Below, piece after piece: positions 2,674-64,000 of a stretch of 64,000 nt of DNA (position 1 is the stretch's first letter; every line of letters starts with the position of its first letter). The position numbers were made by a program, and so were the translations under genes. The notes under the pieces were generated by a model. That model did no database searches and was not told the origin of the DNA. It was given only the letters and a program-made list of their open reading frames with translations. This DNA is from Escherichia phage dw-ec, in sequence record OL739525.1; one strand, 5' to 3'.

Positions 2674-3758
2674 TAGAAGTCAAGCTCCTCATCATCAGAG
2701 AGATCTTTGTTAGCTGAATTCAATTTGTAATTAGTTAACTGAATCTCTTGGGCTGCTGACTGAATCAAATCAGGATTCAACCATTTTTCCATCCAAGCTA
2801 AAGGACTATGTTTAGGTGCTTTAAACTTGGCTTTCATTTTCAATCGACGATAAATAGGAGCAGCATTGAAATAAACCCACTGTTTAGACAATTCGGCGTT
2901 AAGACCTACAATAAAACGACCTTCACTAAACAGGTAGTCACACCACTGTTCCTCTTGTTCAACAACAGTGTCGAGGATCAAAGTCAACTCTTCAATATTG
3001 TCTTCGTAAATTTTACGCCAAATTGGGTCATGCATCAATGCATCAATTACAGCATAATCCATCTTAACATGCAAGATTTCATCTAGCATAATTTTCTGGA
3101 TCAGCTTACAAGCCCCAACAAACAATTGTTGTTCTGCCATAGCAAAAGTAGCAGAGAAGGAAGATATAAACTGAATACCTTCTAATCCAATCAGGGCTAC
3201 CATCCCTTTAAGAATCAGCAATCGAAGTTCATCGTTAGCTTCAATCAATCCTAGAGCATACTTATGACCAGCTTCTTCCAACTGACCCATGATATCAGCA
3301 ATGATACCCATACGATTGAAAATTTTATCATTAATCATAATCTGATTGATGACTTCAATTGGATCTGGAGTACATTGACGAATTATTTCAGAATACGTTA
3401 ACGCATGGAGAACTTCCATTTCACTCTGCTTCATCATCATAGCACAGGCTTCATTGTTACTCAAGAATGGAGAGAACAAAGTGATGATTGATTTTGCAAG
3501 AGAATCATTTTCCCATTGGAACGATAAGTTTTTAATCATAACATCATAGTTGTTTTTAGAACAAGCTACGAAATCTTTACGTGTCTGATCCAAGTTAACT
3601 TCGTTTTCATCCCAATCTTGTGCTTTTTGAAGTTTGTAGAGTTTGTGCATTTCTGGATAAGTTACGTTAACAGAATCAAAGATCCCTAATTGCTCCCCCA
3701 AAAATACTGGATATTTTCCTGTTTTGTAAACTTCGTTGTGTAAATTAATTGCTGCCAT
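2673..3758 (-). CDS. nrdB: ribonucleotide reductase class Ia small subunit
   Basis: 361 aa; recognised as NrdB by overall sequence character and size, adjacent to nrdA. Confidence 0.9.
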   Translation of the reverse strand: MAAINLHNEVYKTGKYPVFLGEQLGIFDSVNVTYPEMHKLYKLQKAQDWDENEVNLDQTRKDFVACSKNNYDVMIKNLSFQWENDSLAKSIITLFSPFLSNNEACAMMMKQSEMEVLHALTYSEIIRQCTPDPIEVINQIMINDKIFNRMGIIADIMGQLEEAGHKYALGLIEANDELRLLILKGMVALIGLEGIQFISSFSATFAMAEQQLFVGACKLIQKIMLDEILHVKMDYAVIDALMHDPIWRKIYEDNIEELTLILDTVVEQEEQWCDYLFSEGRFIVGLNAELSKQWVYFNAAPIYRRLKMKAKFKAPKHSPLAWMEKWLNPDLIQSAAQEIQLTNYKLNSANKDLSDDEELDF

Positions 3759-4083
3759 TTAAATCCTCCACTATTTCACAAAAACCTCTTAAGCTTAAAA
3801 TATCTTCTTCCTCAAAATCATTGCTCCGGTAGAAAGCTTCCAGTGCTTCCCATACGCTTCTACCAAGTATAACAGTCACTGTTTCTTCACTTCTTGCCCT
3901 TGTTATTGCGTAAGCCGTGGCTTCTGGATAAAAAGATTCCCAAATCTGCATGTTAGCTATTTCAAGACCGCCAAGATAATGGTGACACCAAGTAGGGGTA
4001 AAATCTTCAGGGCGAATCAACAGAGGCTTAAACCCAGGTCGGTAGATTGGGGTTACTCCAGGTAAAACTATAAGTGTGCTCAT
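3745..4083 (-). CDS. hypothetical protein between nrdA and nrdB (about 112 aa)
   Basis: Track ORF 3745..4152 trimmed to the ATG at 4083 that follows GAGGAGG RBS and lies downstream of the nrdA terminator hairpin. Confidence 0.5.
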   Translation of the reverse strand: MSTLIVLPGVTPIYRPGFKPLLIRPEDFTPTWCHHYLGGLEIANMQIWESFYPEATAYAITRARSEETVTVILGRSVWEALEAFYRSNDFEEEDILSLRGFCEIVEDLNGSN

Positions 4084-23042: not shown

Positions 23043-23117
23043 GGCCCTGTAGCTCAATGGGAGAGCTGTCGGCTCATAACCGATAGGTAGCTGGATCGAA
23101 ACCAGCCAGGGCCACCA
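23043..23117 (+). tRNA. tRNA with CAT anticodon (Met or lysidine-type Ile2)
   Basis: Cloverleaf folds by hand: GGCCCTG/CAGGGCC acceptor, anticodon loop CTCATAA, CCA encoded. Confidence 0.75.
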
Positions 23118-23119
23118 AC

Positions 23120-23194
23120 GTCTTTATGGTGTAATGGATAGCACAGGAGTCTTCTAAACTCTTAGTCAAGGTTCGATTCCTTGTAAAGACACCA
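23120..23194 (+). tRNA. tRNA-Arg (TCT)
   Basis: 7-bp acceptor, anticodon loop CTTCTAA, T-arm CAAGG-TTCGATT-CCTTG, CCA encoded. Confidence 0.8.
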
Positions 23195-23390
23195 GAACAT
23201 TTTAACATGAATTAGCTCAAGTGATTTGAACCCACTACTGATCATGGTGGCAGAGAATGAGGCAAGTATGTCAGACATTATAAACAAAGGCCACGGTTAT
23301 ATTAGAAGACATAAATGCTCGAAGAGCACCGTTCGTTGAGAACGGGGGTTGGTGGAGTCACCATTCATGGTAAAATGTTTTAAAAAACTA

Positions 23391-23420
23391 TTGACAACTA
23401 ACATTATTTTATGTTAGATT
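23391..23420 (+). promoter_or_regulatory. sigma70-like promoter P2 inside tRNA array (CTATTGACAA ... TGtTAGATT)
   Basis: TTGACA, 18-bp spacer, extended -10; CTAACAT/ATGTTAG inverted repeat. Confidence 0.5.
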
Positions 23421-23428
23421 ATAAGTAT

Positions 23429-23519
23429 GGAAGGGCAAATCGATGTGGCGACGAAAACGGTCTTGAAAACCGCCGAGCTTGAAAGAGCCTTGGGAGTTCG
23501 ACTCTCCCTCCTTCCGCCA
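23429..23519 (+). tRNA. tRNA-Ser (TGA), class II
   Basis: Anticodon loop CTTGAAA, long variable arm, T-arm GGGAG-TTCGACT-CTCCC, CCA encoded. Confidence 0.8.
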
Positions 23520-23524
23520 GATTA

Positions 23525-23610
23525 GGTAGATTGGTGAAATGGTAGCCACAACAGTTTGCTAAACTGTAGTCGGAAACGGCGTGTAGGTTCGAGTCCTACA
23601 TCTACCGCCA
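23525..23610 (+). tRNA. tRNA-Ser (GCT), class II
   Basis: GGTAGAT/ATCTACC acceptor, anticodon loop TTGCTAA, long variable arm, CCA encoded. Confidence 0.8.
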
Positions 23611-23740
23611 AGTTCTTTTTAATATAGCTTACTTTAATAGAGTAAACTTTCGGCAGATGGCCTCCACCATCTTACCGATAACTCATAGTTAGTGGTGTGA
23701 ACACTGGCTATTTTAAAAAGAATTTAAATATTAGTATTTA

Positions 23741-23828
23741 GGTGAGTTAATTCCGTAGGGGTAGCGGGGCAGACTGTAAATCTGTTATCATTGCGATTCG
23801 GGTGGTTCGACTCCATCACTCACCACCA
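23741..23828 (+). tRNA. tRNA-Tyr (GTA), class II
   Basis: GGTGAGT/ACTCACC acceptor, anticodon loop CTGTAAA, long variable arm, CCA encoded. Confidence 0.8.
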
Positions 23829-23834
23829 AATTAA

Positions 23835-23920
23835 GATGAGTTGGCTGAATGGTTTAAGCGGCGGACTGTTAATCCGTGTTCGAAAGAACGATATAGGTTC
23901 AAATCCTATACTCATCGCCA
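23835..23920 (+). tRNA. class II tRNA with apparent GTT (Asn-type) anticodon; isotype uncertain
   Basis: Good acceptor and T-arm, 15-nt variable arm, anticodon stem GCGGA/TCCGT with loop CTGTTAA; class II architecture with an Asn anticodon is non-canonical. Confidence 0.55.
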
Positions 23921-23927
23921 GAATTAT

Positions 23928-24004
23928 GGACTTGTAGAGTTAAGGTAAACCCCCAGTCGCCAAGAGGCTTCTGGAATTGCAGGTATCGAATCCTGCCGAG
24001 TCCC
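23928..24004 (+). pseudogene. degenerate tRNA-like element
   Basis: Acceptor pairing GGACTTG/CGAGTCC and T-arm-like GCAGG-TATCGAAT-CCTGC (8-nt loop), but no canonical anticodon arm could be folded. Confidence 0.35.
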
Positions 24005-24010
24005 AGTTTT

Positions 24011-24085
24011 GCTCCTATAGTATAATGGCTATTACAACGGTTTTGTAATCCGTGGATCTCTGTTCGATTCAGAGTGGGAGCACCA
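24011..24085 (+). tRNA. tRNA-Thr (TGT)
   Basis: GCTCCTA/TGGGAGC acceptor, anticodon loop TTTGTAA (one non-WC pair closing the stem), CCA encoded. Confidence 0.7.
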
Positions 24086-24358
24086 ACATAACATTAAGAG
24101 CACTGTGATTGATCGTCGTATCCTGTGCACAAGGTCTGCTCGAAAGACAGTGTTCTTAGTATTGTGTTGATCACACAAAGAGTTACCTGAAACTTGACCG
24201 GAGTAGGGTTGGATGGGGCAAAAGAAGAAGCGGCTCTCCCATCGACAGCAACGAAGAATAATATTTGACTTTGGTTTTGTATTATTTTAAGTTAGCTTAC
24301 CGAACGTAGGGCTAGTCACCCAATGGGATACTCGTCACTGTCCCACTCAATAAAACTA

Positions 24359-24388
24359 TTGACAACCAATAGTAAAATGTAGTATAGT
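24359..24388 (+). promoter_or_regulatory. sigma70-like promoter P3 inside tRNA array (CTATTGACAA-18-TATAGT)
   Basis: Consensus hexamers about 10 nt upstream of tRNA-Gly. Confidence 0.5.
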
Positions 24389-24399
24389 AAAGATGTAGG

Positions 24400-24473
24400 G
24401 CGTTCTTGGTGTAGCGGTAGCATTCCGTCCTTCCAAGTCGGCGGCACGAGTTCGATCCTCGTAGAACGCTCCA
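24400..24473 (+). tRNA. tRNA-Gly (TCC)
   Basis: Anticodon loop CTTCCAA, T-arm ACGAG-TTCGATC-CTCGT, CCA encoded. Confidence 0.75.
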
Positions 24474-24571
24474 AATTATTTAATAAAGGGTTGCCAGAAA
24501 ACTTTCTCTTTTACTCATGGTTTTCTCCTTCTCTCACACCTCTTCTGGTTGCCCTTCATTAAATGATTTAT

Positions 24572-24647
24572 TGGTTTGTAGTGTAGTCCGGTAGCACACG
24601 ACACTTTGACTGTCGTAGGTTTGGTTCAAATCCAGACAGACCAGCCA
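24572..24647 (+). tRNA. tRNA-Gln (TTG)
   Basis: TGGTTTG/CAGACCA acceptor, anticodon stem CGACA/TGTCG with loop CTTTGAC, CCA encoded. Confidence 0.75.
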
Positions 24648-24652
24648 TATAA

Positions 24653-24729
24653 CGGAATTTAGCTCAGTTTGGTAGAGCATACGCTTTGGGAGCGTAGGGT
24701 CGCAGGTTCGAATCCTGCAATTCCGACCA
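24653..24729 (+). tRNA. tRNA-Pro (TGG)
   Basis: CGGAATT/AATTCCG acceptor, anticodon loop TTTGGGA, T-arm GCAGG-TTCGAAT-CCTGC, CCA encoded. Confidence 0.85.
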
Positions 24730-24735
24730 ATCAAA

Positions 24736-24809
24736 TGTTTCGTAGTTCAATGGTAGAACCCACGACTGATAATCGTGAGACACAAGTTCGATTCTTGTCG
24801 AAACAACCA
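24736..24809 (+). tRNA. tRNA-Ile (GAT)
   Basis: TGTTTCG/CGAAACA acceptor, anticodon stem CACGA/TCGTG with loop CTGATAA, CCA encoded. Confidence 0.8.
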
Positions 24810-24811
24810 GT

Positions 24812-24881
24812 TTCCCGTTAGACTTACAGGATAAGAGTTCCACAACTTATTGTGATGCTGGTTCGAATCCAGCACGGGATA
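24812..24881 (+). pseudogene. tRNA-like element with aberrant anticodon arm
   Basis: Canonical T-arm GCTGG-TTCGAAT-CCAGC and acceptor (1-72 mismatch), but anticodon region folds only as a 4-bp stem with 6-nt loop ACTTAT; 70 nt, no CCA. Confidence 0.4.
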
Positions 24882-24887
24882 CATAAT

Positions 24888-24966
24888 AGCGGGATAGAGG
24901 AGTCTGGTCGTCCTCGCCAGTTTCATATGCTGGAGATCATCGGTTCAAATCCGATTCCCGCCTCCA
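24888..24966 (+). tRNA. tRNA-Met (CAT), second CAT-anticodon tRNA
   Basis: Anticodon stem CCAGT/GCTGG with loop TTCATAT, T-arm ATCGG-TTCAAAT-CCGAT, CCA encoded; A1-C72 mismatch at top of acceptor. Confidence 0.65.
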
Positions 24967-47632: not shown

Positions 47633-49786
47633 ATGAAACAAGCTATATTTACTGTCACGCGAGACAAGAGAGTAAATGCGAGTTCATTTAACTACACGAC
47701 TGTTGACGGAACAGCAGTCGCTGGTAGAGATTATATTGCAAAATCGGGAACACTTGTGTTCCCTGATGATGCTGATTCTGCTACTATTGTGGTTGAAGTA
47801 TTTGAACGACCAAAGAACTCAATAGATCTTAACTTCTCCCTCCAAGTTTCAGGGATTAGTCAAAATAACATGATGGTTGAAACAACCATCAATTGTATTA
47901 TAACTACTATCCAAGAAAATACTACTCCAATAACTTGGACTACAAAAGACGTTAAAATGTTCTCTCCTATGTATTGGACAATAGACTCTCAAGCAACGGA
48001 AAGTTGTTCTATTGTATCTCATGGAGACTCTTTTACTGCAAGATTTGTAAACAGAACAACAGCAGGTTTGGCAGGGGTTATCTGGAGCACAGTTGACAAA
48101 TATGATCACAAAGGTGTTGGGTATTTACCACACACAGATTTAAGTTCAGATAAACTTTGGTTTAAAATGGAAATTAGTCAAAACATGCCAGGTTTTAAAG
48201 AAGAACCTTTGGTGCCGACTTTGACTGTAACTCTCCTGGATAAAAGTGTTCATTATGTCAGTTTAGGATTCTACGCTTCGGATATTTCAGAAGATGGTAA
48301 AACAGCTACAATCAAGTTAGATTTTGGTAATATCTTTTCTGGCCCTAATAATGATATTCCTTTGGATATGAGTGCTGTAGATAATATTTTCTTCTCTTTG
48401 ATTACAGCAAGGTATGAAGAAATAGAAGAGGTTGTACCTATTGACAGTCAAGAGGCTTGGTTTACTTTCACTCTTCTTGAACCTACCTCTGGTTATAGTA
48501 TGATGAAAGTCAGCAACCTTGTCCAGCCTGAACATGATATTCGCATGTGCACATCTTATGATGATATGTATAACCTGACTCCAGAAAGAGTTATTTATAA
48601 TACATATGCGCTAGGTTATCGTGGAATGATTAACCATTACAACGGAATGTCTCACTATTATGAGTTCTCATGGAACGGAACATCTTGGGCTTTAAATAGA
48701 TCTGTTTTCCTGAATCCGGCTACAGAAGCTTGGCTAAATAGTTTCCATTCTATAGCAAACGAGAAGGGCTACACGATAATGAACTCTTTAAGTTTTGAAT
48801 TGATGAGCACAGTTTGTCCTGTAGAATGGGTCCAGCATGATTGGAACGATGCTCTTGCAGCAACAGGGTATGAACCTCCTAGTTATGTGTTGTCTCCAAC
48901 TATTGACGAAGGTATGGAATATTTGCAAAATGTTATTAATAAAATAGCATCTATTTCGCAAGCTAATAATATTCCAGTTGTCATTCAAATTGGTGAGCCT
49001 TGGTGGTGGTATAATACAGCAAGTAAAATGCCTTGCATATATGATTACACTACCAAACTGGCATTCAACACAGAAACAGGTTTATTTGCACAAGATGCAG
49101 GAACAATAGATAATTATAAAACAGGAACGCCGTTTGACGAATACTATGCATTTTTGTCTCGTAAACTAGGATTAAGAGTTACAAAGTTTGCAACAGATAC
49201 TAGAGCAACTTACCCAGGAGCCAAGGTAACATTGCTTCCGTTCTTGCCATCAATTATCGGCAACGGTTTGATGGAGAAAGTTAACTTCCCGTCTGATTAC
49301 TACATTCCTGAAGCTTTTGATTTTTACTGTTCAGAGTGTTATGACTGGCTTCTGGAAGGTAAGATGATGAAAGCATTTGATGCAATTACCATACCACATG
49401 AAAAATTAGGTTTTGAATATTCTGATATTCACTACCTTTCAGGTTTTGTTCCAGATGCTACTCTTGCACCTTTGTATGGCTTTGATCCTAAATCAAACTA
49501 CCGCACATATCTTTGGAAGATGATTATAGGTAACATAGTGTTGAACGCCAATAAGTTTGACGGACTTACACAATATATATGGGCCTATCCTCAAATAATG
49601 CATGATTCTATCACGGTAGTTAATTCTCAATCCCAAGTTTTCTATATGGGTAACGTGCCTTTGAACGTTTATTTACAGGATATCACTCTTAAACAGGTAA
49701 ATGTTGAGATTGCCACCATAAGTGGAATTACATTAGCCACTAAATCTGGAGAAGATTTAGTAACAACACAAAAATTTTATATATAG
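47633..49786 (+). CDS. tail fiber / tailspike protein
   Basis: 717 aa; ORF track. Confidence 0.4.
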   Translation: MKQAIFTVTRDKRVNASSFNYTTVDGTAVAGRDYIAKSGTLVFPDDADSATIVVEVFERPKNSIDLNFSLQVSGISQNNMMVETTINCIITTIQENTTPITWTTKDVKMFSPMYWTIDSQATESCSIVSHGDSFTARFVNRTTAGLAGVIWSTVDKYDHKGVGYLPHTDLSSDKLWFKMEISQNMPGFKEEPLVPTLTVTLLDKSVHYVSLGFYASDISEDGKTATIKLDFGNIFSGPNNDIPLDMSAVDNIFFSLITARYEEIEEVVPIDSQEAWFTFTLLEPTSGYSMMKVSNLVQPEHDIRMCTSYDDMYNLTPERVIYNTYALGYRGMINHYNGMSHYYEFSWNGTSWALNRSVFLNPATEAWLNSFHSIANEKGYTIMNSLSFELMSTVCPVEWVQHDWNDALAATGYEPPSYVLSPTIDEGMEYLQNVINKIASISQANNIPVVIQIGEPWWWYNTASKMPCIYDYTTKLAFNTETGLFAQDAGTIDNYKTGTPFDEYYAFLSRKLGLRVTKFATDTRATYPGAKVTLLPFLPSIIGNGLMEKVNFPSDYYIPEAFDFYCSECYDWLLEGKMMKAFDAITIPHEKLGFEYSDIHYLSGFVPDATLAPLYGFDPKSNYRTYLWKMIIGNIVLNANKFDGLTQYIWAYPQIMHDSITVVNSQSQVFYMGNVPLNVYLQDITLKQVNVEIATISGITLATKSGEDLVTTQKFYI

Positions 49787-49794
49787 GAGTAAAA

Positions 49795-51693
49795 ATGTCA
49801 ACTACAATTACTAATTTACCCGAAACATCAAAAGTTAATGGTTCAGATTACCTGGTTTTAGATCAACCTGATAAAACTGTTAAAAGCACAGTTTCCAACT
49901 TTCTTACTGACACTGGGGTGGTTTTAGCCACCCAGTTGAAAGATACAAATGGAGCAGATTTAATACAATCCTCAAATGGTAATACTGTTCAGGAAGAGTT
50001 GAATAACAATCTTCTTAATGATCGTGAACAGTGGCGTCGTAGTCTTGCCGAGGCTGGGTTAACTCTTGTTGATGGTAGTTTTGAAGAAGGGGCTACAGTG
50101 GGCAGTGTAACTGATGCTGTTTGGCACATTTCTGTTGGACAGTGTTATACATGGCATGGCGCTTTCCCTAAAACTGTTCCTGCTGACTCAACCCCTGAAG
50201 CATCTGGTGGTGTTGGTATTGGTGCATGGGTTAGTGTTGGAGATGCATCTTTGAGAAGCAATCTTGCATCTGATGATGGCGCGGGTCTGGTCGGATTTAA
50301 GTCGCCTCTGGCCAACTCTATTAAGCGAGCACTACATGATAAAAATAATGACCTGGTGTCAGTCAAGGACTTTGGAGTTGTTGGCGACGGTGTGACCGAC
50401 GATACCGCCGCATTTCAGGCAGCAATAGATTCGAAAAAGAGTTTATACATACCGGATGGTATTTATCTTATAAGCTCTACTTTAATCATAACTGCCACTG
50501 ATAGTTTATGTATTGTTGGTAATAGTTTTGGACATGTTAATGACCAAACAACAGGTTCAGTAATTAAGTTTACTGGGTTAGCGTCACCCGCCATTCGGGT
50601 TCAAGGTGGTGCGATAGGAGCTAAGATTTCTGGACTTTTTCTGGATATCCAGGATTCATCATCTGATGGCTTTGATTTCGGTGGGGCTTGGTATTTAAAA
50701 CTTCAAGATTGCGTTGTCAGAAACGCTCGATATGGGGTCTATTTACATTACGATAGCCCAGACTATTTTTCCGGAGTAGCTGAGCTAACTTCGTGCTATT
50801 TCGCTAAATGCGCAAATGGCGTAAAAACGTCAAAAGTAGATATCAACGTAGTTAAAGTTGATAATTGCACCTTCTTTGACGGAGTTAACGGTGTTCTTAT
50901 TGGTGACTCAGGTGCTGCAAGTAGTGTGCGAAATTTCATAGTCAGAGACTCTCTATTCGAAGCGAACACAGGTTATGACGTAGGCGTCGTCGCTGGGGGT
51001 GCGCAGCAGTTACTGGTAGATGGTAACTATTTCGAAGAGAATACCGCTTCCTCTTTAGCGAGGGTATATGTTGCAGATGATGTTCGCTCTCCGCGTTCTT
51101 CCTCGGTTTCAATAACTAACAACACGTTTAGTAAAGATACGACAGGCGACCTTGTTTTCTTGTCCGGTGTTTCCGGCGTTCTTGTTAAACAAAACTGGTC
51201 TGCGTTCGGAGGTATAGGTTTTGTACGGGCGATTAATATTGACAATTATGAGATAGATAGATGCTCCACAGTATCAGGTGCGGCTCCATGTAATGTTGTC
51301 ATAGACAACATCTTACAAGTACCGGACACTTCTGTTAATAAGATTTCTATTAACAAGGCCCAAGAATACTCGTTTATTGGGACTACTGTCGTAAAAAGGT
51401 CTAGTGCATGTACACGGGCTATGATTCAATTTAATGGAATTTCTGGGTCGTTAGTGTATGCAGACGGAGCAACTGTATCTAAAACCGGGACCGGTAAATA
51501 TACCATCAACCTATCTAATGCTTTACCCTCTTCCGCATACGCTGTTTCGTGTAGTGTCGGCAATACTACAGGCGGAGAGAAATTAGCAATTAATGTTGTA
51601 AGTACATCCGCTGGTTCTTTTAACCTTGAAGTTTTCGACCTTTCAGGGGCGTATCAGGATTCTGGATACATATCTGCCGCAGTTATTATGTAA
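49795..51693 (+). CDS. tailspike with pectate-lyase-like beta-helix (polysaccharide depolymerase candidate)
   Basis: DFGVVGDGVTDDTAAFQAAID motif typical of pectate lyase superfamily N-terminus; 632 aa. Confidence 0.55.
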   Translation: MSTTITNLPETSKVNGSDYLVLDQPDKTVKSTVSNFLTDTGVVLATQLKDTNGADLIQSSNGNTVQEELNNNLLNDREQWRRSLAEAGLTLVDGSFEEGATVGSVTDAVWHISVGQCYTWHGAFPKTVPADSTPEASGGVGIGAWVSVGDASLRSNLASDDGAGLVGFKSPLANSIKRALHDKNNDLVSVKDFGVVGDGVTDDTAAFQAAIDSKKSLYIPDGIYLISSTLIITATDSLCIVGNSFGHVNDQTTGSVIKFTGLASPAIRVQGGAIGAKISGLFLDIQDSSSDGFDFGGAWYLKLQDCVVRNARYGVYLHYDSPDYFSGVAELTSCYFAKCANGVKTSKVDINVVKVDNCTFFDGVNGVLIGDSGAASSVRNFIVRDSLFEANTGYDVGVVAGGAQQLLVDGNYFEENTASSLARVYVADDVRSPRSSSVSITNNTFSKDTTGDLVFLSGVSGVLVKQNWSAFGGIGFVRAINIDNYEIDRCSTVSGAAPCNVVIDNILQVPDTSVNKISINKAQEYSFIGTTVVKRSSACTRAMIQFNGISGSLVYADGATVSKTGTGKYTINLSNALPSSAYAVSCSVGNTTGGEKLAINVVSTSAGSFNLEVFDLSGAYQDSGYISAAVIM

Positions 51694-56402: not shown

Positions 56403-59400
56403 ATGGCAACATTCCCAACATATCCAGCAACGTCTCTCGAACAGGGCGTAGACCTGGTTATTTTCTCATCTAACCAACTCCATGATGTTATTAATGGAAG
56501 TGCTACAGAGAGTATTGAAACAGAATCAGGGTTGATACCAACCCTGAGAAAAGCCCTTGTTGACAACTTTTTCTTTAAAAGCCCATTGGATTGGGCGCAA
56601 GGCACAAACGAAACAGTTTTTAACCAACTTCGTTATTTCCAGAATGGAGTATTGAGCGGTTATTACTATGCTCCTAACGCTACATTGGTTAACCCAATCC
56701 CTATGCAAGGGACTCCAGTAGGAGATAACAACTGGGTATTGTGGGGACTGAAAACAGAACAATTAGCAACAGAAGTCACCCCGTGGGTATACTCTGGTGC
56801 AACTGGTTATGAAACAGTAATTAGTCCTCCTTACATCTTTGATAGTGCTATTGTTACGATCAATGGTGTTATTCAGGTTCTGGGGGAAGCTTTCCGTATA
56901 GAAGACAGTAAGATCATCTTATCTGAACCTTTGGGACACGATCCTGCAACAGGACTGCCAAACAAGCTTTTTGCTTATATTGGTAAAATCGTAGCTTCAG
57001 CAGATACAGATCCTAATCTAGAGAACCGTCTTGTTAGTTTAGAAACAAAAACGGAAGAACTAACAGAAAGCATGGATAAAGTCCCTCTGCAAACTATTGC
57101 TCGTAAGTATGGTTTGTTAGATGATGAGGTGGCTTACGCAACAGCAGGTCAATCGTTAACAGGGATTAAAGCTCTGTACGATCCGGTAGCACAGTCTTCC
57201 TACACATTACCTCCTAACATCACAGGAACTTTAACATCCTTATCTGTTTCTGGAGTAATGACTTATTCTGGAGGATCTGTAGACCTTTCTGCACTGGCTG
57301 TTGAGCGTGGACAGTTTGTTCATTTGCCTACAAGCTTTGGTAATAACGTAACTCTGACAGCTAAAAATCAGACGATTGGACGTGGTGCTGGTCGTTATCG
57401 TTGGGCTGGAAGTTTACCAAAAAGTATTTTGGCCTCTGATACATTGGAGACAAGCGGAGGATTAGGTCCAAATGCATGGGTTCTGACTAATACAGAAGGA
57501 CTGTTAACCCCTCGTGGTGGAACATACAACGATCTATTCGATGTTGTCTACTTGTCAGAATTTGCTAACAATACAACTACCTATACCACACCAGAAGCAG
57601 CTTTCCAGGCGGCACTGTTAGCAGCAAAAGCTTCGAAAAGCAAGATTCTCGATGCTTACGGTTGCGACATGACTTTCACGACAAGCTCTTTTGATATTCA
57701 AGATATCACTTTGCGTGGTGGTGTGTTCCGTGGTCAACGCGACTATCGTGTGCAGAATGCTACAGTAGAAGGCACAACTTTCCGTAACTCTCGTGTTATG
57801 TATTGGGGTGGTGCTGTGCGCATGTTCGATTGTTTGTGGGACGGTGCTCCTCGCGCAGGTCAAGTTGGTAGCTTGGTATTCCAAGGCAACCCAATATCAG
57901 GTACTTTTGAAATTGATAATTGTACTTTTAAAAACGGGTTATATGGTATTCTTCAACAAGGAACAGGGGAACCAGTAACACGCGGTGTCTTCCGTAACCT
58001 TACCTTCATGGACATGCAAGGTGATGCAATAGAACTGAACGTCATCAATAAACATTATGACGATGGTTGTGTGATTGAGAATATTTACCTGTCTAATATC
58101 GATGGGACTAACGCTCCTATTCCTCTGTCCAACTGGGGTATCGGTATCGGTGTAGCTGGTAAAGGACCATATGGTTACGGAATCCCTGATGATCAATATT
58201 GTAAGAACATTACAATTCGTAACGTTTTTGCAAAACGTTGTCGTCAGATTGTCCACGTAGAAGTTGGTCGTAATATCTCTATCGAAAACATTCATGGCGA
58301 TCCAGATCAAACCGTATCTGTTGGGACAGGTTTGGCAACTGGCGCAGTTGTAATGTATGGAAGTAAAGACTTTACGATTGATGGTGTTTATGGAGAGCCT
58401 AAAACAGACGGTAGCACACTTGCAAGTAATATCCGTATGATTTACTTGGAGTGGGGAACTAACGCAGTTCTGGATGAAGAGGGTAATCCGGTAGTTCCGG
58501 CACAGGGCAGACCTTCAAACCCATGCTTTAACTATTCTGTTCGTAACGTTCACACCAAAACTGGGCGTGTTTTTGCGGGAGTTTCCGCTGGGCCAGGTTA
58601 TGAAAACAGAGTTAGCTTTGAAAATATTCGTTGCGCTGCCTTGCAGTTGTTCGGTATAGCTTCTTGGCTTTCAATGTCTAACATCACCTGTAATATCTTC
58701 GATTGTGTTGGTCAACCTGAATCTGGTCCAGGGACATTTTATGATGGATTCTTCCGTAGAGAAAAATCTGTTCTTGAAATGGTTAACGTAAACTGTTACC
58801 CAGATGGCAAGACGATGGTTACTGGTCGTCCACAGTGGAGCCGTTGCCGTTACTCGGATATTCATCGTGTCAACTGTAATGTTGAAGCTAATATGTATAC
58901 CAATATCGCAGGTGGTATTGGAGCTATTGTAGGGACAACGGGCAAAGTTTATTACTTAGAGCCTAATCCTAGTCGAAACATTGATGGAATGCATTTCCCA
59001 ACAGGGAAAGAGTTTGACAAAGGGGATATGATAGTCAAGGCGGATAATACGTTCTTCCTTGTAACAACAAGTGGGGCATATATTCCAGATATCCCAGCTT
59101 TCGGTATTCGAGCTACACAGGCAGGAGATACCTTCCTGACACAGAACTTGACTCCTAACGGGACAGCAACAAATGCTTCTTGGTTGTATCATTACCCTCT
59201 GTCAGCAGGGACACGTATCCGTATTCCTGGCGCTGGTGTAGGTGGAGCAGATTTGGACACAGTTATTACTCGTGCACCTTATCAAGATAATGATACGTGG
59301 ACTAACCCAGTTAAAATAGACATTGCAGATCCAATTGTAACGCCTACAAGTGCTGGAGTTAGAATTAAAACCATACCTAATGATTCCAGTAATGTTTCTG

Positions 59401-59456
59401 TAGGTAATACTGCGGTTATTCGCCCAACGCCAGTAGTAGATGTGCCAACAACCTAA
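56403..59456 (+). CDS. large tailspike protein
   Basis: 1017 aa; Gly/Asn/Thr-rich repetitive central region. Confidence 0.45.
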   Translation: MATFPTYPATSLEQGVDLVIFSSNQLHDVINGSATESIETESGLIPTLRKALVDNFFFKSPLDWAQGTNETVFNQLRYFQNGVLSGYYYAPNATLVNPIPMQGTPVGDNNWVLWGLKTEQLATEVTPWVYSGATGYETVISPPYIFDSAIVTINGVIQVLGEAFRIEDSKIILSEPLGHDPATGLPNKLFAYIGKIVASADTDPNLENRLVSLETKTEELTESMDKVPLQTIARKYGLLDDEVAYATAGQSLTGIKALYDPVAQSSYTLPPNITGTLTSLSVSGVMTYSGGSVDLSALAVERGQFVHLPTSFGNNVTLTAKNQTIGRGAGRYRWAGSLPKSILASDTLETSGGLGPNAWVLTNTEGLLTPRGGTYNDLFDVVYLSEFANNTTTYTTPEAAFQAALLAAKASKSKILDAYGCDMTFTTSSFDIQDITLRGGVFRGQRDYRVQNATVEGTTFRNSRVMYWGGAVRMFDCLWDGAPRAGQVGSLVFQGNPISGTFEIDNCTFKNGLYGILQQGTGEPVTRGVFRNLTFMDMQGDAIELNVINKHYDDGCVIENIYLSNIDGTNAPIPLSNWGIGIGVAGKGPYGYGIPDDQYCKNITIRNVFAKRCRQIVHVEVGRNISIENIHGDPDQTVSVGTGLATGAVVMYGSKDFTIDGVYGEPKTDGSTLASNIRMIYLEWGTNAVLDEEGNPVVPAQGRPSNPCFNYSVRNVHTKTGRVFAGVSAGPGYENRVSFENIRCAALQLFGIASWLSMSNITCNIFDCVGQPESGPGTFYDGFFRREKSVLEMVNVNCYPDGKTMVTGRPQWSRCRYSDIHRVNCNVEANMYTNIAGGIGAIVGTTGKVYYLEPNPSRNIDGMHFPTGKEFDKGDMIVKADNTFFLVTTSGAYIPDIPAFGIRATQAGDTFLTQNLTPNGTATNASWLYHYPLSAGTRIRIPGAGVGGADLDTVITRAPYQDNDTWTNPVKIDIADPIVTPTSAGVRIKTIPNDSSNVSVGNTAVIRPTPVVDVPTT

Positions 59457-59517: not shown

Positions 59518-61542
59518 ATGAATTTAACAAGACCTAATAGTGCGATAGCCGATCTGGTAGAAGCTACTTATCGAAAACGTCGCAGCTTTGAGGCAGGTTT
59601 TACATTACGTAATTCCCGTGAAGTTTTGCTGTTAGCAGCAGAAGGGAATTATTACCAATGGAAAGGAACTTTTCCTAAAGTTGTTCCAGCAAACTCTACG
59701 CCAGCCACCACAGGTGGTATTTCTTCCCTTGCATGGCAAAGTGTTGGGACCGCTGATGATATAGCAATTATCAATGCCAAGTTTACGGCAATGCAGCAAC
59801 AGATTGATGATCTGTCGGAAACAATACCTGAAGCTGGTAAATCGGCTTATCAGATCGCACTTGATAATGGTTTTGTTGGAACAGAAGCACAATGGCTTGC
59901 TTCTTTGAAAGGGGATACTGGTGCTCAACTTAATATTAAAGGATCATTAGCAAACACTAGTGAACTACCATCCACAGGTAACGTTGCAGGGGATGGTTAT
60001 ATCGTAGGTGATGTAATCTACGCTTGGGACGGTTCTGTTTGGAAACTTATTTCTTCTCTTGGGCCAGAAGGTAAATCAGCTTACGAGGTATGGTTGGCAG
60101 ATGGTAATACAGGATCTGTTTATGATTTTCTTACCTCTATAAAAGGTGATAAAGGTGATGTTGGTCCTACAGGGCCACAGGGAGCACCTGGTGTTAACGC
60201 CAACGGTTTTGATTATCGTGGGGATTTGCCTTCTACAAGTAACTTACCACAACCAAACTCTGAAAACGTAAGTCAAGCTTATTCTATCAATGGTAATCTT
60301 TATGTCTCTAATGGGACAGCTTGGGTCAACATGGGTAATATTGTTGGTCCTCAAGGTCCACAAGGTGAGGCAGGTAAAGACGGTCTTGATGGAACAGATG
60401 GAGATGAAGGGAAATCTGCATATCAAAGTTGGCTGGATGCTGGTAATGAAGGGACAGAAGTAGATTTTATTGCCTCACTTAAAGGTCCAAAAGGAGACAA
60501 AGGTGATCAAGGAGAGCGAGGTCCACAAGGTGAACTAGGTCCACAAGGACCAGTGGGTGCAACAGGATCAGGCTTAGATATTATCGGGGTTCTGAACAGT
60601 GAAGCTGAACTTCCTCCTACCGGAGAAGTAGGTGATGCATATAAAATTAATAATGATTTATATGTTTGGGTTCAAGATGCTACGGAATGGATGAATGTTG
60701 GCAGTCTTGGAGGAACATCAATTACAGCTAAAGGTCATGTTCCGAACAGTGAAGCTCTCCCTGTTTATAATAACTATGGCGATGCCTACTTAACTGAAGA
60801 CACTAGTAATCTTTACATCTATACCTACGATCAAGACACCAATTCCGCATCTTTTGTTGACATGGGAAGTATTAAAGGCGACAAAGGTGAAAAAGGGGAT
60901 AAAGGAGATAAGGGTGATCCTGGAACAAACGGAACCAACGGTACTGATGGGACCAACGGTAAGGACGGCGCACAGTGGTTTGTAGCAACAACTAATCCAG
61001 TTGCAGGAGACGGTGTTATCAATGATTACGCCTTCAATACTACCACTGGAGCAGTGTTTAAGAAAACAGATTCTTCTACGTGGACGCTTATAGGCACTCT
61101 TCCTAGTATACCAGAAGCCCCTCAAGACGGCTTGACGTATGGTCGGTCTGATGGAAACTGGATCGAAATATCAGGATCAGATCCTACGGAAGCTATAACA
61201 CCAACTAGAGTTACAGCAGGTTTCATGGAACTTGAAACAACTGCTGCCAACTCTGGAGCATCTTGGACTCCTTCTGGAACTTCCAATATGTATGTTGTTA
61301 CAGTAACTGATGCTCTGACAGTTGGAGCATGGCCTGGTGTCACTGGCTCTACAAAACCTAAAGCGTTTTCAGCAATGATTTATTTGATTCAAGATACAAC
61401 GGGACACACGGTTACACTAGATGCGTCTTATGGAGCACTAAATGATACAGAAATAGCAACTGCTGCTAACGCAGTAACAATTTTGCAATTAACGTATCCT
61501 GGTGTGGGTGATATCGTGGACATGGTTGTTGTAACACGATAA
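59518..61542 (+). CDS. tail fiber with collagen-like Gly-X-Y repeats
   Basis: Multiple G-X-Y runs (GDKGDVGPTGPQGAPG; GPQGPQGEAGKDGLDGTDGDEGKS; GDKGEKGDKGDKGDPGTNGTNGTDGTNGKDG); 674 aa. Confidence 0.55.
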   Translation: MNLTRPNSAIADLVEATYRKRRSFEAGFTLRNSREVLLLAAEGNYYQWKGTFPKVVPANSTPATTGGISSLAWQSVGTADDIAIINAKFTAMQQQIDDLSETIPEAGKSAYQIALDNGFVGTEAQWLASLKGDTGAQLNIKGSLANTSELPSTGNVAGDGYIVGDVIYAWDGSVWKLISSLGPEGKSAYEVWLADGNTGSVYDFLTSIKGDKGDVGPTGPQGAPGVNANGFDYRGDLPSTSNLPQPNSENVSQAYSINGNLYVSNGTAWVNMGNIVGPQGPQGEAGKDGLDGTDGDEGKSAYQSWLDAGNEGTEVDFIASLKGPKGDKGDQGERGPQGELGPQGPVGATGSGLDIIGVLNSEAELPPTGEVGDAYKINNDLYVWVQDATEWMNVGSLGGTSITAKGHVPNSEALPVYNNYGDAYLTEDTSNLYIYTYDQDTNSASFVDMGSIKGDKGEKGDKGDKGDPGTNGTNGTDGTNGKDGAQWFVATTNPVAGDGVINDYAFNTTTGAVFKKTDSSTWTLIGTLPSIPEAPQDGLTYGRSDGNWIEISGSDPTEAITPTRVTAGFMELETTAANSGASWTPSGTSNMYVVTVTDALTVGAWPGVTGSTKPKAFSAMIYLIQDTTGHTVTLDASYGALNDTEIATAANAVTILQLTYPGVGDIVDMVVVTR

Positions 61543-61546
61543 CAGA

Positions 61547-61572
61547 AGCCCCGAAAGGGGCTTTCTTTTTAT
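61547..61572 (+). terminator. intrinsic terminator
   Basis: AGCCCC-GAAA-GGGGCT hairpin followed by TTCTTTTT. Confidence 0.55.
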
Positions 61573-61583
61573 GGAGGGTTTAA

Positions 61584-64000
61584 ATGTTTCCAATTCCAAT
61601 ATTTACTATTATGACCAGCACTGGTGTCGTTCCTCTGCCAGCGGGTATTGTTAAAAAAGTAATCACTTTAGATTACCCAGATAATGCTGGTAATTCTAAC
61701 AGCAGTTTAGCAATTTTGCTTAATGATGGTAGATTGTTTACTCAAGGCGCAAACCTTTTTGGTGAGATTGCAGATGGAACTCGTAGTGCACGATTCAATA
61801 ATTTCCACTTAGCTTCTACTGTAGTAGCGGATGTGTTTACCGCAGATCGTTGTTTTGTTATTAAAACTAACAGCGGGGGATGGCAATATTCAGGATTGAC
61901 AGCAGGGTTGGTAGGATCTATAGCAGCAGGTGGTACGGATGCATGTGTAACTACTTGGACCAGCTTTCCATCTGTAATAACAGGGACTATCTCTTTAGCC
62001 AATCTTAAAGAGGTTAAAGGAGGGTATAACAATACTCTTTGGTTAATGAATAGCGGTGTTCTTTATGGATCGGGTCAAAACACAGTAGGCAGTTTAGGTG
62101 CAAGCACTACTAACGAAGTTTCTACTCCCCGTCAGATAACAAGTTCAGCAGTTGCTTTTGATGCAGGTTATAACCAATGCTCTTATGTCAACAATGCGGG
62201 AACCTTGCGTGTTTGTGGAGCTAGTAAAGGTTTAGCAGGTAATAATAACACAACAACCGCTTTTGTCAATGCCACGATATCCACTACTGAAACAGTGTAT
62301 GTCAAAGATTACATCAATACAGTTTCCCAGACAATAGTTGTAGGAGATACCTCCGGTGGCGCGGGTACAGTAAACTACTTATATGTTAGATCTAATACAG
62401 AAACAACCTACACTAAACTGGACACCTTTGCAGCAGGTTTCTCAACATGGAAATTTCCACCAAGCCGCCACTCTTTTTTCGTTGGGATCAATAATTCCTT
62501 GTGGGCTATTGGTAAGAACTACACTGCAAACTTAGGTTTGGGATATGATTCTGCGAGCGGAGATCCACTCCAAGTGGGAAAACCAGTTAAACCTGAAGGA
62601 GTGGGTTCCTGGGATATAAACAAGCTCACAAGCGTTCATACGTTGAATATGGATATTACTAACCAATTAGGTTATCAAGGAACCTTTTTCGTTTATAACG
62701 GGGATATGTATTATTCCGGTATTTGGAAAGATGGGAAAGCCTCGTATCTGTTCAATAGTGGTCTAAACTATAATAAATTCACACCAATAGCAAGCTCCGT
62801 GATTACGGGGGATGTTCTGGCAACTGGCTTAACTACAGATTCTTTAGGAATTTGTATTGTAGGTGGAACTAAACAGTTGACACATTCTGTTAGCCCAGAA
62901 GGAGGTAAACTTTTCAATATTAAATACACTTCTTCTGCCCCTGCAAACATGACAATATCATCTACTGGTTTAATGACTTTCCATGCAGAAGGTGGTTTTG
63001 ATGCAGGTATGACAGCCTTAAACGCTGAAGGAACAACTTTATCAGATACCTCTGGAGGATATGCTTCAACATTGAGTGTTTACACCCCTAGCTTATCTGC
63101 GATGGATGTAGGAACAACACAAACAATGGTAGCAGAAATAACGCCAACAGGAGCAGCAAGCTTACCTGGTATGGTTGTTGAGTATACAACTACAGATCCT
63201 AATGTTGCTACAGTAGATCCTACAACTGGTGTAATAACTGGTGTTGGTGATGGTGGTTGTAGAATTGGTTGCACAGCTACATATCAAGGTGTTGTTACCG
63301 CTTCTGATAGTTCTTATTTAACGGTGAACGCTGTTGCGGGAAAGGAGTTAGCTCCATCTCCGAGTAGTAGTTTAACGGTTCTAAACGGATATTTCAACCA
63401 CTCGGCAGATGGGGCAATTACGTTCCCAATTTTATCGGGTACTGTCACACCAGCTAACTTTGTAGTTAAGGTGGATGACGTTGTAATACCTTCAAATAAA
63501 GTAATATTTAGAAATAAAGCTTTCTCTACAGTGGATAGTTATCCAGCAGGAGAATATAGACTGGCTATTGAATTTGCAAGTGCTTCAGTAGTGAATAGTG
63601 TTGATGTGTCTATGGAAGCAAATCCAGATCTTTTAGAATTATGGGGCGGCAACAGAATTGGTTATTCTACAAGCCCAGCCTCACAATTCTTAAAAGGTTG
63701 TGCTAACTTAAGACGAATAACTTCTGATTGTTTTAGTAACACATCTTACACCGGAACATCTATAAGTGGTATCTTCTCTGGCTGTACAAGTTTGACAGCT
63801 ATCCCTGAAGGATTATTCAGTGATGCTTTATTTCCTTCAATGACAACAATGTCAAGCACGTTTGAAGGTTGTACATCTTTAACATCTATTCCTTCAGATT
63901 TATTTAAAAATCTATCAAAAGTTACAAGATATTCTTACACCTTTAAAGATTGCACCTCTCTTGCAGAAGTTCCAGCAGGAATGTTTGATAATATTCCAAC
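61584..64000 (+). CDS. large tail fiber / adhesin, 3-prime partial (Ig-like and BspA-type leucine-rich repeat segments)
   Basis: Frame open from ATG at 61584 to window end; Big_2-like segment (TTDPNVATVDPTTGVITGVGDGG); repeated F..GCTSLTSIP LRR-like units near the end. Confidence 0.45.
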   Translation, partial: MFPIPIFTIMTSTGVVPLPAGIVKKVITLDYPDNAGNSNSSLAILLNDGRLFTQGANLFGEIADGTRSARFNNFHLASTVVADVFTADRCFVIKTNSGGWQYSGLTAGLVGSIAAGGTDACVTTWTSFPSVITGTISLANLKEVKGGYNNTLWLMNSGVLYGSGQNTVGSLGASTTNEVSTPRQITSSAVAFDAGYNQCSYVNNAGTLRVCGASKGLAGNNNTTTAFVNATISTTETVYVKDYINTVSQTIVVGDTSGGAGTVNYLYVRSNTETTYTKLDTFAAGFSTWKFPPSRHSFFVGINNSLWAIGKNYTANLGLGYDSASGDPLQVGKPVKPEGVGSWDINKLTSVHTLNMDITNQLGYQGTFFVYNGDMYYSGIWKDGKASYLFNSGLNYNKFTPIASSVITGDVLATGLTTDSLGICIVGGTKQLTHSVSPEGGKLFNIKYTSSAPANMTISSTGLMTFHAEGGFDAGMTALNAEGTTLSDTSGGYASTLSVYTPSLSAMDVGTTQTMVAEITPTGAASLPGMVVEYTTTDPNVATVDPTTGVITGVGDGGCRIGCTATYQGVVTASDSSYLTVNAVAGKELAPSPSSSLTVLNGYFNHSADGAITFPILSGTVTPANFVVKVDDVVIPSNKVIFRNKAFSTVDSYPAGEYRLAIEFASASVVNSVDVSMEANPDLLELWGGNRIGYSTSPASQFLKGCANLRRITSDCFSNTSYTGTSISGIFSGCTSLTAIPEGLFSDALFPSMTTMSSTFEGCTSLTSIPSDLFKNLSKVTRYSYTFKDCTSLAEVPAGMFDNIP

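Follow-up and report, generated by a model that had tools for sequence, protein, structure and literature searches.

A Phapecoctavirus tail protein with a predicted RCC1-like propeller, Ig-like domains and an exchangeable C-terminal tip carrying leucine-rich repeats

The last open reading frame (ORF) in a 64,000-nucleotide (nt) stretch of DNA from Escherichia phage dw-ec (sequence record OL739525.1; in the following, the whole stretch is called the window) begins at position 61584 on the + strand, leaves the window at 64000 and encodes amino acids (aa) 1-805 of an 890-aa tail protein. This protein probably serves as a modular adhesin of the virion; most likely, it is an accessory receptor-binding protein that forms part of a multivalent adsorption apparatus. 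Alignment of the homologues showed that its first 584 residues are conserved across the genus Phapecoctavirus and beyond, and that the last 306 residues form a discrete cassette. From the N- to the C-terminus, the domains follow each other in the order RCC1-like beta-propeller, two immunoglobulin (Ig)-like domains, beta-sandwich and seven leucine-rich repeats (LRRs) of the TpLRR/BspA class with a C-terminal cap. Phage receptor-binding proteins of modular build and with a swappable tip are well known, and the gene is already present in the databases in essentially identical form, annotated as tail protein and named in one paper. The combined propeller/two-Ig/beta-sandwich/TpLRR architecture and the occurrence of two alternative tips, types A and B, across the genus appear to be undescribed in the literature that was searched.

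The ATG at 61584 opens a frame of 805 codons without a stop up to the end of the window; a stop codon at 61581 precedes it, and the other five frames contain 44-88 stops each over positions 61001-64000. The last 5 kb of the window are 99.9% identical to Escherichia phage ETEC-TG, and coverage of these 5 kb reaches at least 80% in 69 phage records, which with few exceptions belong to Phapecoctavirus (Stephanstirmvirinae; phAPEC8, ESCO5, 536_P1 group). Its sequence places the window in Phapecoctavirus, as DNA of a phAPEC8/ESCO5-like E. coli myophage. In the related full genomes the ORF is intact and uninterrupted; in ETEC-TG and ESCO5 it comprises 2,673 nt and 890 codons for amino acids and is annotated as 'tail protein', the window copy differs from the ETEC-TG protein at one residue in 805, and the cluster representative (134 member sequences) is likewise 890 aa long. 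Since the full ETEC-TG gene encodes 890 aa, just 85 residues fall outside the window and the protein is not giant. An initial annotation of the window had correctly described an ORF of more than 800 codons running off its end, but had called the product a 'giant adhesin', a term that does not suit a protein of this length, since giant bacterial adhesins comprise thousands of residues with long domain arrays.

The protein matches PHROG 11922 ('tail protein') end to end (E = 0), in line with the assignment to phage tail proteins already made in the initial annotation. Its gene is the last of the tail-fibre cluster, after genes for a baseplate wedge, a short fibre, a chaperone, a colanic-acid-degrading tailspike and a collagen-containing fibre; 3' of its stop codon lie a bidirectional terminator and then the replication module on the opposite strand. 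Thus, both membership in a phage tail protein family and position within a tail-fibre cluster were found. A paper from 2025 gives the protein the name TfpM1, with a length of '890 or 891 aa', and reports it from phapecoctaviruses and the proposed 'Wecvirus' and as absent from justusliebigviruses. TfpM1 of Phapecoctavirus/'Wecvirus' (ETEC-TG WPK30741.1, ESCO5 YP_009787159.1, the tuntematon tail protein) is the same gene, with 99-99.9% protein identity, 890 aa, the same last-in-cluster position and no difference in sequence; neither a domain architecture nor a ligand or a dimorphism of the tip is given in the published descriptions that were consulted. The annotation of Shigella phage SF1-1 splits the gene into two 'tail protein' pieces, perhaps owing to a frameshift or a sequencing error.

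Homologues of the protein fall into groups that have aa 1-584 in common and are wholly different in the remainder. The exchangeable cassette consists of the last 306 residues (aa 585-890), and its junction lies at aa 584/585, corresponding to window positions 63335/63336. The homologues P0008 and P0009, for instance, are 97% identical over aa 1-584 and unrelated beyond; for P0008, most 20-residue segments before about aa 520 are 20/20 identical, those from there to aa 580 reach 16-17/20, and identity is at chance level thereafter. The same boundary was seen in DNA. A reference locus (L001), collinear with the window without indels at an offset of 50,999, was used for these coordinates: homology between ETEC-TG and phage Schickermooser, which has the type-B tip, stops at aa 584 (L001 position 12335, window 63334) and is seen again from 22 nt past the stop codon onwards, where the terminator hairpin has its 3' edge. 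In the full-length AlphaFold2 (AF2) model, the upstream boundary of the cassette coincides with a low-confidence linker at aa 585-589. The protein thus joins a conserved N-terminal part to an exchangeable C-terminal part, an arrangement that it shares with phage tail fibres and receptor-binding proteins.

The LRR tip (type A) was found at 90% identity or more in 35 records and the type-B tip, at the same threshold, in 39 records including a phAPEC8 derivative. The type-B tip (VIVMDYDL...GLKYYD, about 307 aa; positions 3000-3924 of the Schickermooser locus L008) matches the NCBIfam 'phage head spike fiber domain' (GTA_spike_fiber) with an E-value of 2.6e-20. Genomes of justusliebigviruses also contain it, at 62-92% identity, and one of these copies is listed as a lateral tail-fibre protein; it looks like a widely travelled binding module. 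More distant relatives of this tip occur in small E. coli siphoviruses, RcapMu and cyanophages. Other homologues carry DUF285 repeats (P0021, P0022, P0025), a fourth unrelated type or no tip at all, giving at least four tip types; the tipless homologues are 565-610 aa long. Among the relatives with a type-A tip, the cassette is 90-93% conserved versus 76-86% for the propeller and Ig part, and this better conservation of the cassette is consistent with its movement between lineages. The genomic slot itself is variable as well, being occupied in other phages by phi92 gp152 or by a Vequintavirus protein of 1875 aa.

The largest domain of the protein was overlooked in the initial annotation. It is a seven-bladed RCC1-like beta-propeller predicted for aa 1-400 (window 61584..62783, + strand) by Pfam, Foldseek and AF2. 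RCC1 (PF00415) scored 24.4 bits, above the gathering score of 21.7; the RCC1-like domain profile WD40_RLD gave an E-value of 1.6e-11 but, with 44.6 bits, stayed under its whole-domain cut-off of 150. When the propeller model was compared with the PDB using Foldseek, UVR8 was the best match (E 1.8e-13, target template modelling score 0.70), followed by HERC2, RPGR and RCC1. The predicted local distance difference test score (pLDDT) of this part was about 85-95, and the N-terminal segment contains the invariant columns M1, P3, P5, G14, P17 and G21.

It could be argued that function resides in the propeller itself, as a lectin or enzyme whose target would be a conserved glycan, for instance the lipopolysaccharide (LPS) core or enterobacterial common antigen, and that the C-terminal modules are secondary. 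The size of the domain and its conservation beyond the genus would fit this: its first ~195 residues, i.e. about three blades, occur in Vequintavirinae and the whole propeller region in phages of Salmonella and Cronobacter, and some homologues lack a tip altogether. In the receptor-binding protein of S. aureus phage phi11, moreover, propeller platforms are reported to bind N-acetylglucosamine of wall teichoic acid. On the other hand, no catalytic or sugar-binding signature turned up in the propeller, although no test was aimed at one, and justusliebigviruses infect broadly without it. The two ideas need not be opposed, as a functional propeller would be compatible with an adhesin that acts through its tip; as the principal explanation, however, it is very doubtful.

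Two tandem Ig-like domains follow at aa 409-496 and 497-584 (window 62808..63335, + strand; Pfam, PHROGs and AF2). The second is a Big_2 domain: Pfam Big_2 (PF02368) matched aa 505-565, i.e. window 63096-63278, with 36.7 bits against a gathering score of 22.8, and the segment scanned alone reached 49.1 bits, so that the Ig-like Big_2 segment noticed at first was borne out. The Ig region also matches PHROGs 32204, 28902 and 215, and AF2 predicts all-beta domains here. The cassette then starts with a predicted beta-sandwich at aa 585-690 (window 63336..63653, + strand; AF2). Structure prediction for the full-length protein gave a pLDDT of 84; for the cassette alone, the pLDDT was 93.5 and the predicted template modelling score 0.89.

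The repeats occupy aa 700-890, of which window positions 63681..64000 (+ strand) are covered here, with units starting at 63690, 63774, 63861 and 63942; three more units and the cap lie past the window end. The motif F-x-[GD]-C-x-x-L is found at aa 731, 760 and 787, preceded by a degenerate unit at aa 703. In 20,000 shuffles of the protein, the mean motif count was 0.006 and none of the shuffles reached three. In the full protein there are seven units (aa 703, 731, 760, 787, 815, 847 and 873) with a period of 26-32 residues and the family consensus FxGCTSLTxIPxxLF. They are closed by the C-terminal cap CTKLSDYNNIPSGYK, whose motif recurs in the family consensus. The repeat units are just 31-51% identical to each other in DNA, and the repeats are therefore ancient; an origin by recent duplication is ruled out by the same values.

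Direct profile scans stayed below their cut-offs. In a scan of the last 205 aa encoded in the window, LRR_5 (PF13306) reached 17.1 bits (E 0.0054), short of its gathering score of 27.7, and it was not listed at all when the full-length protein was scanned; DUF285 (PF03382) gave 16.6 bits against a cut-off of 25 and the PARCEL repeat TIGR02167 (NCBIfam) 17.3 bits against 30. For this reason, the class was established via homologues and fold. An exhaustive HMMER search with the 306-residue C-terminus retrieved 13,851 representative proteins at E <= 1e-3, 774 of them at <= 1e-30. A second search returned matches down to E 1.6e-38 (P0189, which carries PF13306), many with precomputed LRR_5 or DUF285 assignments. 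In an alignment (A2) of 62 rows, made up of six phage cassettes and 56 metagenomic homologues, the threshold of E <= 1e-3 was reached with LRR_5 by 31 of the 62 members and with DUF285 by 33, and the profile built from it hits the solved LRR structures 4fs7 (2.2e-31), 4gt6 (1.1e-24) and the T. pallidum TpLRR protein (3.2e-10). The tip was assigned an LRR solenoid fold nearest to structures of the TpLRR type; Foldseek with the AF2 model of the tip only gave no significant match. Taken together, these results identify the tip as a divergent member of the TpLRR/BspA class with a long period. The initial description of BspA-type repeats thus stood with respect to motif, homologues and class, but the LRR_5 match by which it was to be checked remained sub-threshold.

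Members of this class (LRR_5; T. pallidum TpLRR, 6mlx; Bacteroides ovatus BACOVA_04585, 4fs7), together with the related DUF285 and PARCEL repeats, share with the phage tip the F-x-G-C-x-x-L core and one short beta-strand per unit. The period in TpLRR is about 23 residues, as compared with 26-32 in the phage units; moreover, the phage protein has just seven units, and these are placed at the C-terminus of a predicted virion protein instead of a cell-surface protein. In the tip model, the strands fall on ISG, MSS, YSY and SLT, residues that vary between the repeat units.

We next consider where the LRR module occurs. When 50,697 phage records were searched with the LRR tip, 56 matched. Among them is the gpI baseplate protein of P2-like Klebsiella phages (Peduoviridae; phage ST16-OXA48phi5.4, QBP07953.1), in which Tail_P2_I and Big_2 precede an LRR_5 region that reaches the C-terminus and passes the cut-off (41.3 bits); 'tail protein I' of a Trabulsiella prophage has the same Tail_P2_I/Big_2/LRR_5 architecture. 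These proteins resemble TfpM1 in having Big_2 followed by BspA-class LRRs, with 32% identity over the LRR region, and differ from it by the Tail_P2_I anchor in place of the RCC1-like propeller; the phages are temperate and belong to another family. Weaker matches were found in jumbo phages of Erwinia, Serratia and Klebsiella, in a Synechococcus phage and in a Butyrivibrio phage. Judging from these records, the LRR module is uncommon but not unique among phages, so the earlier remark that such repeats are 'uncommon in phage tail fibres' holds for their number and has to be relaxed in view of the gpI proteins. No characterisation of an LRR-tipped phage protein was found in the searched literature.

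The initial annotation had interpreted the ORF as a fragment of a giant bacterial-type adhesin with Ig and BspA-type LRR domains captured from the host. Big_2 and BspA-class repeats are indeed typical of bacterial surface proteins, and the distant relatives with the best scores for the LRR module are giant multi-repeat proteins: those sampled are metagenomic, 2,000-7,400 aa long, and combine DUF285 and/or LRR_5 with BACON, PKD, Flg_new or Mfa-type fimbrillin domains. Their identity to the tip is just 30-45%, however, and the BACON, Mfa, Flg_new and PKD domains that accompany the repeats are typically met in Bacteroidota and Firmicutes rather than in E. coli. As nine of the ten clusters looked up for the nearest non-phage relatives carry no protein name, the taxonomy of these relatives was inferred solely from such co-occurring domains and one match in an Alistipes metagenome-assembled genome (MAG). 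A search of 5,426 complete E. coli genomes with the cassette DNA, at the sensitivity of blastn, found nothing. A scan with a further alignment (A3) over one genome per species (185,579 GTDB species) gave a single close locus, located in a 'Proteobacteria' MAG (L006; JAEZZU010000064.1, a 43.5-kb contig). Throughout the 6.6 kb compared, this locus runs collinear with the phage and is 97.9% identical to it; it is therefore a Phapecoctavirus contig that was mis-binned into a bacterial MAG. Furthermore, the LRR segment has a guanine and cytosine content of 34.7% versus 39.1% for the window, which is phage-like and far from E. coli. With a complete protein of 890 aa, no E. coli match, phage DNA as the only close GTDB locus and relatives that are metagenomic or phage tail proteins, acquisition from the host is not supported, and a giant host-captured adhesin is extremely unlikely.

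For the protein as a probable modular adhesin, the following mode of action can be envisaged. The conserved propeller and Ig portion would attach the protein to the virion and project it outward, and the LRR tip would bind a host-surface ligand via its beta-strand face, where the repeat residues vary. A tip swap could then change the secondary receptor or the strains that can be used, while the essential receptor, the LPS core, would be read by other fibres. The Wec phages provide a comparison. We found the type-B tip in phiWec186 and the type-A tip in phiWec188 and phiWec190. The tail-fibre proteins of phiWec179, 181 and 186 are reported to be identical within the group, with flagella as the reported secondary receptor; for the phiWec188/190 group, a requirement for YhaH has been reported, and for both groups a requirement for the R1 LPS core. 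The link between tip type and secondary receptor in the Wec phages is correlative only.

Several points weigh against a receptor-binding role. In the Wec phages, further fibres differ from one group to the other, which confounds the correlation. The tip of 536_P1 is 100% identical to the type-A tip of ETEC-TG used as query, and resistance mutants against 536_P1 map to the LPS core and the K15 capsule and reveal no specific ligand of the tip; given these loci, the tip is not the reader of the essential receptor on that host. A literature search on this protein and its counterparts in phi92, rV5 and PVP-SE1 found no placement in the virion by proteomics or cryo-electron microscopy, and a phi92 structure paper from 2026 does not mention gp152. 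Unlike the three neighbouring fibre/spike proteins, the protein has no Tail_spike_N anchor, and there was no sign of the trimeric architecture that is usual for fibres. Finally, the structural assignments refer to predicted models, not to solved structures.

Some of these observations would also suit a decoration protein of the head, tail tube or sheath, in which the Ig and LRR domains, instead of recognising a bacterial receptor, confer a weak adherence of low specificity, as in models of bacteriophage adherence to mucus; mucus glycans or the extracellular matrix of animals would be examples of targets. The missing Tail_spike_N anchor and the lack of a tip-specific receptor in the resistance screens would fit this case; in addition, the Ig region matches PHROGs described as 'major tail protein' and 'structural protein with Ig domain, head and packaging', and the NCBIfam family hit by the type-B tip is named after head spikes. 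A further point is provided by phi92 gp152, which takes the corresponding slot, last in the tail-fibre cluster, and has an Ig pair 64% identical to that of TfpM1, but is 202 aa long, contains neither propeller nor tip, and is annotated with a lambda gpV-like fold. Likewise, BspA-family adhesins of oral bacteria bind host matrix proteins. The gene, however, stands at the end of the tail-fibre cluster and not among head or tube genes. The Vequintavirus protein in the same slot is the last lateral tail-fibre protein (WalterGehring bas51_0041) and one of three allelically variable lateral-fibre genes; it shares the first ~195 residues at about 39-41% identity, has double the length, differs in its middle and end, and is annotated 'lateral tail fiber protein with intimin domain'. 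A sharp, roughly 50:50 dimorphism of the tip in near-identical phages is the pattern expected of host-range determinants. We regard a decoration protein as unlikely but as a serious rival, and an accessory receptor-binding protein is the reading that we prefer.

The BspA-class LRR tip on an Ig stalk may bind something other than a bacterial glycan, either a proteinaceous surface structure of E. coli or, more radically, a component of animal mucosa or matrix, although we give this little credence. If the ligand were a protein of E. coli, TfpM1 would represent a protein-reading arm in an otherwise glycan-directed 'Swiss-army-knife' adsorption apparatus. If it were a mucosal or matrix component, the dimorphism between LRR and head-spike-like tips would correspond to two ecological strategies within one phage genus. 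Phapecoctaviruses are among the E. coli phages with the broadest host range and are under development for therapy and biocontrol. A cleanly bounded, naturally dimorphic tip cassette offers a ready-made swap experiment and a defined site for host-range engineering. Records of near-identical phapecoctaviruses go by names such as 'Campylobacter phage B15' and 'Pseudomonas phage PsgM04F', and further ones are listed as an Acinetobacter phage and as Klebsiella phages.

Upstream of the gene, a Shine-Dalgarno sequence GGAGGG is located at 61573..61578 (+ strand), 5 nt 5' of the ATG, within the upstream sequence TCTTTTTATGGAGGGTTTAA. Between the preceding tail-fibre gene (stop at 61542) and the ATG, a terminator-like hairpin, GAAGCCCC-GAAA-GGGGCTTT followed by a T run, is present at 61545..61564 (+ strand; L001 10546-10565), which suggests that the last gene is expressed less by read-through than its neighbours. 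The three neighbouring fibre/spike proteins with a Tail_spike_N (TSP1/Gp66) domain, identified by Pfam and PHROG, are encoded at 49795-51693, 56403-59456 and 59518-61542. This domain is used for branched tailspike complexes in Ackermannviridae. One of the three, with 1017 aa, is a homologue of the phi92 gp150 colanidase, and another, with 674 aa, has collagen repeats.

Further upstream, positions 47633-49786 encode a 717-aa tail protein with Calx-beta and the N-terminal and TIM-barrel domains of the 'non-contractile tail sheath protein' Pfam families (E 4.8e-79), a family name that is odd for a phage with a contractile tail. Between the leftward and rightward gene blocks, ten tRNA genes (Met, Arg, Ser, Asn, Thr, Gly, Gln, Pro, Ile, Met) are located at 23043-24966 on the + strand. 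Among these, 'tRNA-Asn(gtt)' at 23835-23920 has 86 nt, an unusual length for a tRNA of this type, which is normally shorter, and its type may have been miscalled.

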